From: Acidimicrobiia bacterium
Lineage (GTDB): Bacteria > Actinomycetota > Acidimicrobiia > Spongiisociales > UBA5794
Assembly: GCA_965216945.1 (NCBI GenBank)
Contig: CBDCGU010000003.1
Span: forward strand, 3,526,653 to 3,590,652
Direction of reading: 5' to 3'
DNA: 64,000 nucleotides
This document shows, one piece after another, positions 23,097 to 61,280 of this stretch; within the stretch, counting starts at the first letter, position 1, and each line of letters opens with the position of its first letter. The notes beneath the pieces are model-generated. The model did not search any database, was not told where the DNA came from, and saw only the letters and a program-made list of their open reading frames with translations. The position numbers and the translations under genes were made by a program.

Positions 23097-23114
23097 CGAA
23101 CGTACGTACGTTCG
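23097..23114. promoter_or_regulatory. perfect 18-nt palindrome CGAACGTACGTACGTTCG, about 40 nt upstream of the amidohydrolase gene; member of the recurring operator family
   Basis: Read directly. Confidence 0.5.
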
Positions 23115-24933: not shown

Positions 24934-24949
24934 GAACGAACGTTCGCTC
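24934..24949. promoter_or_regulatory. GAACGAACGTTCGCTC operator variant followed by CTTCCC, about 60 nt upstream of the second LLM gene
   Basis: Read directly; near-identical to the 56434 site, including the downstream CTTCCC. Confidence 0.45.
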
Positions 24950-34043: not shown

Positions 34044-34061
34044 AGAACGTACGCTCGTTCG
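34044..34061. promoter_or_regulatory. operator-family site (minus-strand CGAACGAGCGTACGTTCT; 17/18 identical to the 41496 site), about 85 nt upstream of the ABC transporter operon
   Basis: Read directly. Confidence 0.5.
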
Positions 34062-41495: not shown

Positions 41496-41513
41496 CGAAC
41501 GAGCGTACGTTCG
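41496..41513. promoter_or_regulatory. operator-family site CGAACGAGCGTACGTTCG, about 65 nt upstream of the LLM-Prx-LLM-OsmC-TauE operon
   Basis: Read directly. Confidence 0.5.
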
Positions 41514-43371: not shown

Positions 43372-43389
43372 CGAACGAACGTACGTTCC
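43372..43389. promoter_or_regulatory. operator-family site CGAACGAACGTACGTTCC, 23 nt upstream of the LLM start (inside the ORF-track's extended ORF)
   Basis: Read directly. Confidence 0.45.
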
Positions 43390-43578: not shown

Positions 43579-44700
43579 TCATGAGGGCTTCGGGTCGGGC
43601 CACGCCGGCTTCTTCAAACGGCTCGGATGTGCCATGCGGTACTGCTTTGGGTATGAAAGGTCGATACCCAGCCTGTCGGCTGCGTGCCATGCCCAGCGCG
43701 GATCGTCGAGCATGCCACGGGCAAGTGCAACGAGGTCGGCTTTGCCAGAATTGACGACCTCATCTGCCTGGAACGGCTCAGTGATCATCCCGACTGCGAT
43801 CACGCGTATGCCGGCTTCGTTTCGGATGCGTTCGGCGAATGGGACTTGATATCCGGGCCCGGTAGCGATTCGTTGTTGTGGCGCCAGACCACCCGATGAG
43901 ACATCGATGAAGTCGCATCCCAGCTCGCGCAGCTCGCGGGCAAGTACAACGCTCTCGTCGATGTCCCACCCACCGGGAACCCAGTCCGAGGCAGAGATTC
44001 GCACGCCGAGCGGCTTGTGGCGCGGCCACTCGGATCGCATCGCAGCGAACACCTCGAGTACGAGTCGCATCCTGTTGACCAGCGACCCGCCGTAGGAGTC
44101 GGTCCGCTTGTTGCTCAGGGGCGACAGGAACTGGTGGAGCAGATAGCCGTGAGCGGCGTGCAACTCCACGACGTCGAATCCGATTCGTTCGGCACGCCTG
44201 ACCGCTCCGACGAATGCGGCCACGATTCGCTGCAACCCCTGCGACTCCAGAGCCACCGGGGGAGGGTCTTTTGGGTCGTAGGGGATGGCCGAAGGGGCAC
44301 TGCATTCCCACCCGCCTTCGTCCGGCATGATGAAGCCATAGCCTTCCCAGGGTGGGCGGGTCGACGCCTTCCTTCCGGCATGTGCCAGTTGGATCCCGAG
44401 TGAAGCCGAGCCGTGTCGACGGCAGAAGTCAACAACGCGCGTGATGGCGTCTTCCGTAGCGGTGGAATGAAGTGAGGGACACCCTGGGCTGATCCGGCCC
44501 TCGGGCTCGACAGCGGTTGCTTCCGTGAATACGAGGCCGGCACCGGAGACCGCATATTGGCCGAGGTGCATGAGATGCCAGTCCTGCATGAGGCCGTCAA
44601 CTGCGCTGTACTGGCACATCGGCGAGACAACGATCCTGTTCTCCAGTTCAACCGAGCGGAGCGCAAGCGGCGTGAAGAGGGCGGCCTTCGAGTCGGGCAT
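43579..44700 (-). CDS. NADH:flavin oxidoreductase (Old Yellow Enzyme family)
   Basis: LALRSVELENRIVVSPMCQY...HAAHGYLLHQFLSPLSNKRTDSYGGSLVNR OYE motifs. Confidence 0.8.
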   Translation of the reverse strand: MPDSKAALFTPLALRSVELENRIVVSPMCQYSAVDGLMQDWHLMHLGQYAVSGAGLVFTEATAVEPEGRISPGCPSLHSTATEDAITRVVDFCRRHGSASLGIQLAHAGRKASTRPPWEGYGFIMPDEGGWECSAPSAIPYDPKDPPPVALESQGLQRIVAAFVGAVRRAERIGFDVVELHAAHGYLLHQFLSPLSNKRTDSYGGSLVNRMRLVLEVFAAMRSEWPRHKPLGVRISASDWVPGGWDIDESVVLARELRELGCDFIDVSSGGLAPQQRIATGPGYQVPFAERIRNEAGIRVIAVGMITEPFQADEVVNSGKADLVALARGMLDDPRWAWHAADRLGIDLSYPKQYRMAHPSRLKKPAWPDPKPS

Positions 44701-44747
44701 CTCGCACCTTTCCCTTGGAGAGAGTAGATTCACCACGCGAACGGACG

Positions 44748-44761
44748 TTCGTATGACCGTG
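44748..44761. promoter_or_regulatory. operator variant CGAACGGACGTTCG (followed by TATGA) in the divergent OYE / cupin-SO intergenic region
   Basis: Read directly; resembles the 60523 site CGAACGAACGATCGTATGA. Confidence 0.4.
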
Positions 44762-44922
44762 CTACGACAGCGTAGCCCATTTGTCCGGGCGCAAGGCTCG
44801 CTGCAAGCGGGAGCTGGCCCACTATGCCACCGGCGGCAATCGCATGGCTCACCGGACTCGAGGAATGCGGTCGCGAACGGCCGCTCGATGCGGCAGTGCG
44901 TAGAGACAGCGAAGGCGGACCG

Positions 44923-46425
44923 ATGCCGATCGTTCAACATGACCGTGATACGGCCATCCCAGGGGAGAACCGTGTCTCCCTGCGCGACCTGGTCACCCAA
45001 CAACAGGGGGCGACGTCGTTGAATGTCACGGAGTTGGTGATCGAGCCAGGAGTTCGGCGGAGCTTCTCAGGTCAACCGGTAGAGACTGCATACATGCTCG
45101 TCGAAGGCTCGATACAGATGGTGGTCGGAGACGAGCGCCGCACCGTCTGCGCTGGCTCGACGCTGCTGGCGCCGGCGGACACAGCGCACGAGCTCGTAAA
45201 CGACACCTGGGTTGACGCCAGGCTCGTTGTGATCACCACGGTGGAACGAGGTCGCAGAGCACCCGGGCTCGCCACCCTCGCGTCACCTGGGCCAGCGGAT
45301 GAGACCGCCTCGATGCCGCATCGGGAGGAAGGGCATCTGATACCTACGGACGGCGATGGCCGCTCGTTTGCTACGCCACCCGGTGCGCTGCGCGACGTTG
45401 TCGTGCCAAATCACAGGTTCTACGTTCGCAACCATTGGGAAGGCGCACCTCATGTCGATCGCGACACGTATCGGCTCGACGTCAGCGGTGACGTTTCACA
45501 CCCCCTGCAACTGAGCATGGACAGATTGCTGGCGCTGCCCAGTAAGCGACTGGAAGTCACTCTCGAATGTTGTGGCAACAGCCCAGTACCCCATTTCTGG
45601 GCGCTACAAACGCGACCGGCAATGGACAAGGTCTCTGGTCACGGACTCGTCGGCAACGCCGTGTGGCGTGGGGTGCCTCTGGCCCAGGTCCTCGAAATGG
45701 CTGCCATCAACGAGAGTGCCGTCGAGGTGGTGTTCACAGGTGCTGACCATGGGCCGGATGAAGTAGCAGGCGAGCCACCGGATGTGACCTACGAACGCAG
45801 TCTGCCGATTGCCAAGGCCACACATCCGGACACGTTGTTGGCCTACGAGATGAACGGTGAACCCCTCCCGCCACTGCACGGATCACCACTGCGCCTTATC
45901 GTTCCCGGCTGGTACGGCATGACCTCGGTCAAGTGGCTGGTCGGCGTGACGGCGATCGACCACACGTTCGCTGGGTTCTACCAAACGAGCCGTTACATGG
46001 TCGCAAACGGCCCCGCCGCTGAGCACTACTACACGTATCTGACGGAGATGCGTGTCAAATCGATCATCACGAGTCCCGCCCCCGGTGAGAGCGTGCCGCT
46101 CGGAACATACCGGATCGCCGGCGCCGCGTGGTCCGGCACAGACGAGATCATCGGCGTCGAAGTGAGCTCCGACGCAGGTCTCACGTGGTGGGGTGCGCAC
46201 CTCTCGCCGCGGACCGACTATTCCTGGCAGCGGTGGGAAGCCGAGTGGACGCCTCAGACGGCCGGTAGGTATACCCTCATGTCGCGGGCCACGAACAGCA
46301 GCGGTGAGACCCAGCCGATGGAGTTCCCCAATGTCTGGGATGGTCGCAGCTATGGGAACAACATGGTCTTCTCACGCATCGCCGAGGTTCGGGACGTGAC
46401 GGCGGCGAGGTCCTGGCACCATTGA
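44923..46425 (+). CDS. fusion protein: N-terminal cupin domain plus sulfite-oxidase-family molybdopterin oxidoreductase (Mo-binding and dimerisation domains)
   Basis: Single uninterrupted frame; cupin-like N-terminal 140 aa, then SO-family region (LECCGNSPVPH...GWYGMTSVKWL). Confidence 0.65.
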   Translation: MPIVQHDRDTAIPGENRVSLRDLVTQQQGATSLNVTELVIEPGVRRSFSGQPVETAYMLVEGSIQMVVGDERRTVCAGSTLLAPADTAHELVNDTWVDARLVVITTVERGRRAPGLATLASPGPADETASMPHREEGHLIPTDGDGRSFATPPGALRDVVVPNHRFYVRNHWEGAPHVDRDTYRLDVSGDVSHPLQLSMDRLLALPSKRLEVTLECCGNSPVPHFWALQTRPAMDKVSGHGLVGNAVWRGVPLAQVLEMAAINESAVEVVFTGADHGPDEVAGEPPDVTYERSLPIAKATHPDTLLAYEMNGEPLPPLHGSPLRLIVPGWYGMTSVKWLVGVTAIDHTFAGFYQTSRYMVANGPAAEHYYTYLTEMRVKSIITSPAPGESVPLGTYRIAGAAWSGTDEIIGVEVSSDAGLTWWGAHLSPRTDYSWQRWEAEWTPQTAGRYTLMSRATNSSGETQPMEFPNVWDGRSYGNNMVFSRIAEVRDVTAARSWHH

Positions 46426-46540: not shown

Positions 46541-47170
46541 ATGTCGCTGCGTACGACAGCCGGAGCCAACGACGCGATCTACCCAGCTGCGATCGATCTT
46601 TTTGCCGAACACGGGTACGAGGCAACGACCCTGAGAATGCTCTCAGACGCGGTCGGGCTTCAGGTGGGGAGTCTCTACAACTACATCGTGTCCAAAGAAG
46701 ATCTTCTCTTTTCGATCATGCGAAACGTCATGGTCGCCCTGTGCGAAGAGGCGGAGGAGGCGGTGTCGCAGAGCAGCGATCCTGCGACGCAGATCGATCT
46801 CTTCTTTCTTCACGCGGTCCGATTCCACGCAGACCGCAAGAAGGAGACGTTCGTTGGCAACACCGAGTTGAGAGCTCTGTCGCCGGCGAATAGAGCAACG
46901 ATTGTCGGTCTCAGGGACCGGTACGAATCGATTCTCCGAGTCGCACTCCGCGCATGTGCTGCGAAGGGCCTCTTGCCGCCGAGCGACGTGCGTCTCGCAA
47001 CCTACGCGGCAATCGCCATGGCCACGCACGTCTCGACATGGTATCGAGACGACGGTGAGCTCTCGATCGAGGAGGTTGCGCTCGGCTTGCGTCGGATGTA
47101 CGCACCCTTCTCAGATCTGGAAGATGCCGCCGACCAGGTGCGCGACAGCCAAGAGAAGTCGTCACGCTGA
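46541..47170 (+). CDS. TetR/AcrR family transcriptional regulator
   Basis: HTH TLRMLSDAVGLQVGSLYNY; AGGAGA RBS. Confidence 0.8.
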   Translation: MSLRTTAGANDAIYPAAIDLFAEHGYEATTLRMLSDAVGLQVGSLYNYIVSKEDLLFSIMRNVMVALCEEAEEAVSQSSDPATQIDLFFLHAVRFHADRKKETFVGNTELRALSPANRATIVGLRDRYESILRVALRACAAKGLLPPSDVRLATYAAIAMATHVSTWYRDDGELSIEEVALGLRRMYAPFSDLEDAADQVRDSQEKSSR

Positions 47171-52254: not shown

Positions 52255-52274
52255 GAACGAGCGTTTGTTCGAAC
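52255..52274. promoter_or_regulatory. operator-family site GAACGAGCGTTTGTTCGAAC abutting the AtuA start
   Basis: Read directly. Confidence 0.4.
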
Positions 52275-56433: not shown

Positions 56434-56449
56434 GTACGAACGTTCGCTC
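56434..56449. promoter_or_regulatory. GTACGAACGTTCGCTC operator variant plus CTTCCC, in the divergent ACAD / LLM intergenic region
   Basis: Read directly. Confidence 0.45.
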
Positions 56450-60522: not shown

Positions 60523-60540
60523 CGAACGAACGATCGTATG
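60523..60540. promoter_or_regulatory. operator variant CGAACGAACGATCGTATG in the divergent carboxyltransferase / MaoC intergenic region
   Basis: Read directly. Confidence 0.4.
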
Positions 60541-61262: not shown

Positions 61263-61280
61263 CGAACGAACACTCGCTCG
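61263..61280. promoter_or_regulatory. operator variant CGAACGAACACTCGCTCG about 50 nt upstream of the 2-oxoacid dehydrogenase E1 alpha gene
   Basis: Read directly. Confidence 0.35.

Follow-up and report, generated by a model that had tools for sequence, protein, structure and literature searches.

A cupin domain joined in frame to a sulfite-oxidase-family molybdoenzyme in an Acidimicrobiia bacterium, and the two-gene pair of its relatives

The stretch of DNA described here, which we call the window, comprises 64,000 nucleotides (nt) from an Acidimicrobiia bacterium (GCA_965216945.1, contig CBDCGU010000003.1), and one of its genes joins a cupin domain to a molybdoenzyme of the sulfite oxidase (SO) family. 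The open reading frame (ORF) lies on the plus strand at 44923–46425; from the ATG at 44923 to the TGA at 46423–46425 it is free of stops, and its 500 codons plus the TGA specify a product of 54.7 kDa. Pfam recovers on this 500-amino-acid (aa) product, in this order, Cupin_2 (residues 40–104), the molybdenum-cofactor (Moco)-binding domain Oxidored_molyb (PF00174; residues 175–353, positions 45445–45981; 168.9 bits against a gathering score of 24), and the dimerisation domain Mo-co_dimer (PF03404; residues 373–483, positions 46039–46371; 46.6 bits against 22.7). Cupin_2 stays just below its gathering score of 27.2 in the 500-aa form, at 26.9 bits, and reaches 29.6 bits in a scan restricted to the N-terminal 130 aa. 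No heme domain appears in the Pfam parse of the ORF. A sequence-only reading of the window had proposed one continuous cupin–SO frame with the domains in this order, and on both points it was right: there is neither a hidden stop nor a frameshift. Its cupin of about 140 aa has to be divided, however, since only some 105 aa form the cupin core and a linker of some 33 aa makes up the rest.

How do relatives of this gene look? Related loci were collected from scans of GTDB species genomes and JGI metagenomes, using tblastn and then translation, and they belong to metagenome-assembled genomes (MAGs) of Dehalococcoidia/SAR202. In every locus where both genes are visible (46 of 46), the cupin and the SO enzyme are encoded by two separate, adjacent genes, with the cupin upstream and a spacer of 22–1013 nt between them, and the three closest database matches have the same two-gene layout in their contexts. 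The relatives' cupin is 116 aa long (117 in one locus) and ends in [Y/F]P-x2-[E/D]-L-E-T-x2-L-E, directly followed by the stop. Apparent fusions in L001–L006 and L028, each seen as a single tblastn high-scoring segment pair over residues 1–490, were rejected, as an in-frame stop follows the cupin in each. In L001–L006, L013, L016, L028, and L081, the cupin and the SO enzyme do lie in the same frame, split by a stop and a short spacer; in same-frame loci with a short, stop-free spacer, one stop-codon mutation would fuse the two.

Database searches, each showing the best 120–150 matches, extended the comparison to single proteins. The best 120 of 2,946 homologues in a set of 5.8 billion proteins are SO-only proteins of about 367 aa, with at most 68% identity, the query itself excepted. 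When a profile of 32 family cupins was run against the 5.8-billion set, the best 120 matches were all stand-alone proteins of 116–124 aa. When 1.84 billion cluster representatives were scanned by HMMER, with the cupin part as the query, 86 matches were obtained, the longest of 418 aa and none of about 500 aa, although clustering at 50% can hide a fused protein behind an unfused representative, as it does for the query itself. Literature searches found no account of a cupin–SO fusion or pairing. In the searches made, the fusion is a singleton, the only fused copy among the 46 related loci and the databases searched, which bears out the earlier suggestion that such a fusion is uncommon. Because the two parts are adjacent genes in every relative, it is a recent, lineage-specific fusion and not an established architecture.

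The beginning of the fused gene deserves a comment. Counted from an ATG at 44824, the longest form of the ORF has 533 aa, the same sequence as that of the public protein P0001. However, the true start is most likely the ATG at 44923. It is favoured because the N-terminus MPIVQH that it provides fits the MPII[E/D]H of the cupin family, because the extra 99 nt (44824–44922) hold an operator-like site, and because their GC content at codon positions 1/2/3 (GC1/2/3; 0.79/0.64/0.61) resembles that of non-coding DNA. The corresponding values are 0.68/0.44/0.74 in the cupin core, 0.64/0.50/0.73 in the SO part, and 0.67/0.50/0.72 in the adjacent Old Yellow Enzyme (OYE) gene. The ATG at 44923 is preceded by AAGG, a Shine-Dalgarno (SD) sequence of a kind typical of this genome. 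The public 533-aa annotation probably places the start 33 codons too far upstream.

The larger part of the product is a recognizable SO-family enzyme. Its best solved relative is SorA (PDB 2BLF), with E = 4e-54 over residues 158–483, and in the alignment to 2BLF the molybdenum-coordinating cysteine is found as C216 (TGT, 45568–45570), the equivalent of the Mo-ligating C104 of SorA. In the same alignment, R169, H171, and Y358 pair with SorA R55, H57, and Y236; the first two lie just upstream of the Oxidored_molyb domain and the third just downstream of it. Together with C217, these four residues are invariant across 45 close homologues. The nearest NCBIfam families are SorA, SoxC, and SorT. A sulfoxide reductase of the MsrP/YedY type was considered and rejected (56.2 bits against a cut-off of 207, a dimerisation domain present, and no signal peptide). 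Inspection of the sequences revealed no twin-arginine (Tat) or Sec signal in the fusion or at the N-termini of the relatives' SO enzymes, e.g., MALPQIGTKAEPQIIPTNAG, and the enzyme would therefore be cytoplasmic. No cytochrome gene adjoins the fusion in the window, where the neighbours are the OYE gene and a TetR-family gene, nor is there one among the conserved neighbours of the relatives.

The cupin core (44923–45237, plus strand; residues 1–105) is a monocupin barrel of the TM1459 type. It is 49–53% identical, without gaps over 104 residues, to the stand-alone 116-aa cupins, reaching 53% with that of L086, and its codon-position GC signature is like that of the neighbouring genes. In the AlphaFold2 (AF2) model, residues 30–108 form the barrel with a predicted local distance difference test (pLDDT) score of 86–95. 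A Foldseek search with the cupin model returned TM1459 (1VJ2) and TTHA0104 (1V70) at the top (E ∼1e-5, probability 1.00), with XC5357 also near; these neighbours are generic monocupins whose function is unknown or was engineered. With the family N-terminus kept, the core ungapped, and the tail and stop absent, the window cupin can be regarded, by its sequence, as a derived, fused member of the SAR202 116-aa cupin family.

Where the window cupin departs from its family is the metal site. The canonical ligand positions read S49-Q51-E54 ... H89 (S-x-Q-x2-E...H), while 40 of the 46 relatives have H-x-H-x2-D ... H, the five loci nearest in cupin sequence (L082–L086; 47–53% identity) have Q-H-D ... 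Y, and one has H-H-D ... Y. Cupin motif 1 (G-x5-H-x-H-x3,4-E-x6-G) is replaced in the window by G43-VRRSF-S49-G-Q51-PV-E54-T-AYMLVE-G62. In motif 2 (G-x5-P-x-G-x2-H-x3-N) the window has G78-STLLA-P84-A-D86-TA-H89-ELV-N93, with the His and the Asn kept and the Gly of P-x-G changed to Asp. Judged from these residues, canonical metal-dependent activity is unlikely, and the metal site S-x-Q-x2-E...H therefore makes the tethered cupin most likely a non-catalytic partner domain, acting by binding, scaffolding, or gating, and not an active metalloenzyme. The stand-alone cupins of L082, L084, and L086 (Q-H-D...Y; e.g., L086:3444–3791) show a ratio of nonsynonymous to synonymous substitution rates (dN/dS) of 0.09–0.12, a sign of strong purifying selection. 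Eroded His ligands are thus compatible with function in this family, and its conserved role may not depend on the classical metal site.

Between the two parts lies the linker TVERGRRAPGLATLASPGPADETASMPHREEGH (45238–45336, plus strand), of about 33 residues, which replaces three things found in the relatives: the ELETxxLE-stop tail of the cupin, the intergenic spacer, and the ribosome-binding site of the SO gene. It is predicted to be disordered (pLDDT < 50 in AF2), and its GC1/2/3 is atypical at 0.76/0.76/0.64. The place of the family's tail and stop is occupied by TVERGRRAPGLATLASPGPADETAS, and MAFFT aligns PADETAS of the coding frame weakly to the P-x-x-ELET tail. An internal ATG (M131; 45313–45315, plus strand) coincides with the start codon that the SO gene had in the ancestral arrangement. 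In 44 of the 46 related loci the SO ATG has an AGGAG-type SD of at least 5 nt, placed 5–10 nt upstream; no SD is found in the 22 nt that precede M131.

Could the fusion be an artefact of assembly or sequencing, so that two genes really exist and a faulty MAG consensus has dropped a stop or shifted the frame? The occurrence of the fusion in one assembly, when all 46 relatives have two genes, invites this suspicion, as does a TGA in the +1 frame at 45300–45302, 10 nt before the ATG at 45313: a single indel within 45238–45299 would restore the order stop, spacer, ATG. On the other hand, three-frame translation of 45200–45360 found no ELETxxLE-like tail in either of the two other frames, and with no remnant of the tail there a hidden frameshift at the junction was ruled out. 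The longest homopolymer in the junction does not exceed 3 nt. Since the tail and the spacer differ from those of the relatives in length as well as in sequence, with no trace of the tail in the other two frames and no homopolymer longer than 3 nt, a single-base error is insufficient. The SD is also gone, which an indel does not explain, and elsewhere in the 1.5-kb gene the frame is undisturbed, the conserved blocks keeping frame against the 46 relatives. We therefore consider an artefact highly improbable.

The explanation that we favour, as somewhat more likely than not, is a genuine lineage-specific fusion of a conserved cupin–SO pair. Its product would be a heme-less oxidoreductase of the sulfite type, located in the cytoplasm and tethered to a cupin that is probably non-catalytic. 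The ancestor would have been a 116-aa monocupin gene directly upstream of a heme-less SO gene of about 368 aa, the latter without a signal peptide, and this two-gene module would have come from SAR202/Dehalococcoidia. The last ∼11 codons of the cupin, its stop, the short spacer, and the SD of the SO gene would then have been lost or overwritten, possibly through a small deletion of xxLE-stop-spacer-SD plus insertion or divergence further upstream. Translation from the ATG at 44923 would read through the flexible linker into the SO enzyme. The SO part, as a dimer, would oxidize sulfite or a close sulfur oxyanion to sulfate in the cytoplasm and pass the electrons to O2 or a soluble carrier, the candidate acceptors, and the cupin would normally act together with it. 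The strict pairing in the relatives and the fusion in the window suggest a physical interaction of the two proteins. SAR202 bacteria count among the most abundant cells of the dark ocean. They are predicted to free sulfite from organosulfur compounds and to oxidize it (PMC5395668, PMC5864207), and the role proposed here for the SO enzyme matches the one given in that literature to the SAR202 sulfite oxidase, namely the removal or use of organosulfur-derived sulfite.

Several observations weigh against this explanation. The fusion is known from a single assembly and one contig. The full-length AF2 model, made from an SO-only alignment, has no usable interdomain geometry and cannot be relied on in the cupin, the linker, or the packing of the domains. 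As for the enzyme, the SorA R109 position is occupied by Pro221, within a CCGNSP motif that is followed by a 4-residue insertion, and this Pro is nearly invariant in the whole clade (45 homologues); we take the position to be that of R190 in the chicken enzyme, going by the CAGNRR motif. The NCBIfam scores are well below the equivalog cut-offs: 227.3 bits against 600 for SorA, 168.4 against 570 for SorT, and 206.8 against 420 for SoxC. Given these scores and the Pro, sulfite is therefore a presumed substrate. As for the cupin, the fused domain lost two of its three His ligands, the Asp ligand became Glu, the PPG of the family reads PAD, and the conserved C-terminal tail is gone, changes that could equally mark a domain that is being lost. 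Lastly, an SD-like GGGAGGAAGGG lies at 45323–45333, just 3′ of M131 and 8 nt before an in-frame CTG at 45337, so that separate initiation of an SO-only product near this element is possible. The CTG at 45337 encodes the L of the conserved LIPT motif.

These last points lead to another explanation: the cupin may be a decaying remnant, the working product being a 41-kDa SO enzyme from an internal start at or near M131, and the frame would have stayed open as stops are rare in a genome of 64% GC. The chance that 25 codons remain open is ∼0.63, but over 130 codons it falls to only ∼0.09. The replacement of H, H, and D by S, Q, and E, the PAD, and the missing tail agree with decay, and GGAGG at 45324–45328, before the in-frame CTG, could serve an internal start; against the latter, the canonical SD of the relatives is missing before M131. 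The rate tests speak on both sides. In three-taxon branch lengths the window branch carries the highest cupin distances, and the identity of the window cupin is ∼1.3 standard deviations under expectation (mean z −1.3, from a regression on 276 pairs of relatives, here used in extrapolation); the cupin/SO branch-length ratio of 1.9–2.2 on the window branch nevertheless falls within the 0.9–2.2 of the other, intact lineages. Moreover, the cupin retains the full coding GC signature, has no indels over 104 residues, and is predicted to fold with confidence, and ligand-eroded cupins elsewhere in the family are under purifying selection. Overall, the sequence data indicate a mild acceleration with no clear pseudogene signature. 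Outright pseudogenization is unsupported by the rate and composition tests, which leave early decay possible, and a decaying remnant seems unlikely to us as the explanation of the locus.

A different thought concerns the relatives more than the window. In marine SAR202, where such a cytoplasmic SO-family enzyme is widespread, the 116-aa cupin might be its obligate, so far overlooked partner subunit, with candidate roles as a sulfite-delivering or sulfite-generating module, or as an electron- or oxygen-handling partner of the heme-less enzyme. We hold this as a tentative proposal, on the doubtful side. If true, the fusion would be a natural “Rosetta stone” for a two-component system.

Or, is the fusion a bifunctional protein, in which a cupin active through a non-canonical site (e.g., as a thiol, persulfide, or sulfinate oxygenase or lyase) releases sulfite directly to the tethered SO enzyme? 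The flexible N-terminal tether resembles the one that carries the b5 domain of animal SO, the relatives' pair clusters with a protein of four rhodanese domains (4x-rhodanese), and the 3His-1Asp site is intact in 40 of the 46 family cupins. In sulfite-producing pathways, cupin thiol dioxygenases are known to work alongside a Mo oxidoreductase and a rhodanese, and the breakdown of mercaptosuccinate links all three (PMC5373536). Yet the window cupin keeps just H89 and an acidic residue, no rhodanese gene is present at the window locus, and the structural neighbours are generic monocupins, either without an assigned function or engineered. Nor does the protein resemble the known enzymes: identity as a thiol dioxygenase (CDO, MDO, or Msdo) was rejected, with no Pfam or NCBIfam match to CDO_I or another such family for the window domain or its stand-alone relatives and a length of 105–116 aa, far below the ∼190–200 aa of those enzymes. 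Channelling of this kind is, in our opinion, improbable. Identity as a dimethylsulfoniopropionate (DMSP) lyase was likewise rejected; there is no family match, and DddK is merely a generic fold neighbour at Foldseek rank 31.

The surroundings of the pair differ between the window and the relatives. In the window, the fusion is divergent, as the sequence-only reading had stated, from an OYE-family gene on the minus strand (43579–44691; 370 aa, start MPDSK..., Pfam Oxidored_FMN at 203.6 bits, with NCBIfam matches). A TetR-family regulator (46541–47170, plus strand; Pfam TetR_N and TetR_C_24, again with NCBIfam matches) lies directly downstream. Genes for a luciferase-like monooxygenase, an amidohydrolase, a thiolase, and a CoA-transferase are also among the neighbours; a rhodanese gene, an SO paralogue, and a 192-aa protein known from the relatives are absent from the window. 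In the relatives, a frequent order is the 4x-rhodanese protein, a second SO paralogue (∼400 aa), the cupin, and the SO enzyme (examples at L004:4221–5951, L082:4281–5471, and L007:1330–2664). The 577-aa 4x-rhodanese protein is found in 25 of 42 related loci, over which there are 30 extra SO-family ORFs, and farther downstream 23 loci have an MFS transporter, 26 a cyclase-family protein, and 24 a Ham1-family protein. As the cupin and the SO enzyme are kept together in these differing neighbourhoods, the pair travels as a unit.

Some details of the relatives' clusters add to the sulfur theme. At the place of FYVRNHW in the SO enzyme, the SO paralogue has FYVVQHF and thus lacks the Arg equivalent to SorA R55; it may act on a different substrate. 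Upstream of the paralogue a conserved protein of 192 aa is encoded (L082:3592–4170; also L006 and L083–L086), which has no Pfam or NCBIfam match and contains “SPHDHG”, a motif that may resemble those of the cupin thiol dioxygenases. In L084 (1–1764), APS reductase genes, for an AprA-like FAD_binding_2 protein and an AprB-like APS-reductase_C protein, and an IclR regulator stand beside the cluster of SO paralogue, cupin, and SO enzyme, and this locus may encode two routes of sulfite oxidation.

A further feature of the locus is a set of operator-like palindromes. An operator-like site, CGAACGGACGTTCGTAT, is present in the sequence between the OYE and cupin–SO genes and could be shared by both; it lies at 44738–44754, 47 nt from the ATG of the OYE gene and ∼170 nt from that of the cupin. 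It contains a perfect 6+2+6 palindrome, CGAACG-GA-CGTTCG (CGAACGGACGTTCG, 44738–44751), as well as GAACGGACGTTCGTAT (44739–44754), a variant, with an atypical right half, of the window-wide GAACG-N6-CGTTC. A degenerate second copy, CGAACGGCCGCTCGATG, is found at 44874–44890, 33–49 nt upstream of the ATG at 44923. CGAACG-N2-CGTTCG-like matches number 34 in the window against 9.4 expected, a count reached in 0 of 100 shuffles. The motif can be written (gc)GAACG-N2-CG-N2-CGTTC, and most copies lie just upstream of the starts of predicted (catabolic) genes. Perfect copies of GAACG-N6-CGTTC stand at 23098–23113, 34045–34060, 41497–41512, and 43373–43388, and near copies at 24934–24949, 52255–52270, 56434–56449, 60524–60539, and 61264–61279. 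The palindromes look like the operator set of one regulon, and the TetR protein encoded downstream of the fusion is possibly their binder. The sequence-only reading had placed an operator variant between the two genes at 44748–44761; a variant of the enriched palindrome is indeed in this intergenic region, but those coordinates are off by ∼9 nt and cover only its 3′ half, and the exact 14-mer that they define is not enriched (2 matches against 5.6 expected). Next to the palindrome there is also a 14-nt direct repeat, ATGACCGTG[C/A]TACG, at 44753–44766 and 44939–44952, with 13 of 14 positions identical and 186 nt between the copies. One copy abuts the intergenic palindrome, the other falls in cupin codons 6–10, and CGTTC precedes both; the ATGACCGTG element shows no enrichment and no further copy in the window.

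What, then, is the value of this finding? The fusion itself, whose cupin has an eroded metal site, is confined to one genome; it is a domain-architecture variant of a known enzyme family that was found once, and it is of value mainly for pointing to a gene pair, less as a novel class of enzyme. More is gained from the cupin–SO pair of SAR202, which is strictly conserved and unstudied: a pair adjacent in 46 of 46 loci and fused once provides the testable hypothesis that both proteins act as a unit, and it nominates an uncharacterized cupin family for biochemical study. The mechanism and the electron acceptor of the heme-less, cytoplasmic SO-family enzymes of SAR202 are a question on which this pair bears.

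Comparison with known systems helps to place the fusion. SorA of Starkeya novella (2BLF) and SorT of Sinorhizobium meliloti (4PW3) share with the window protein the Moco-binding and dimerisation domains, the Mo-ligating Cys, and the equivalents of R55, H57, and Y236. The window protein differs from both by the lack of a Tat signal, by having no cytochrome c partner in the neighbourhoods inspected, by the Pro at the R109 position and the insertion after CCGNSP, and by its N-terminal cupin. Plant SO (1OGP) and a putative SO of Thermus (6Y0K) have the same heme-less two-domain core; they come without a cupin partner, the identity is low, and plant SO uses O2. Animal SO carries its N-terminal b5 domain on a flexible tether, and the chicken enzyme (1SOX; Moco match E = 1e-35) is like the window protein in combining a small accessory domain, a flexible tether, and the Moco and dimerisation domains. 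In the window protein, however, the place of the cytochrome b5 heme domain is taken by a cupin, the tether has ∼33 residues, and the presumed R190 equivalent is missing.

For the cupin, the closest models are the TM1459-type monocupins (1VJ2; TTHA0104, 1V70), which are also single barrels of ∼110 aa. The stand-alone 116-aa members of the family have a His-rich site, whereas the window domain has only one canonical His; TM1459-like proteins have themselves no established biological role, and we know of none that partners a molybdoenzyme. Compared with Msdo, CDO, and MDO, which have a 3-His site, the relatives' cupin is shorter and without a thiol-dioxygenase match, and the metal site of the window domain is eroded. 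At the level of gene clusters, however, there is a likeness: the mercaptosuccinate dioxygenase (Msdo) clusters of Variovorax paradoxus B4 and Advenella (PMC5373536) link a cupin, a rhodanese, and a sulfite-oxidizing molybdoenzyme, and a similar trio is found in the relatives of the window gene.

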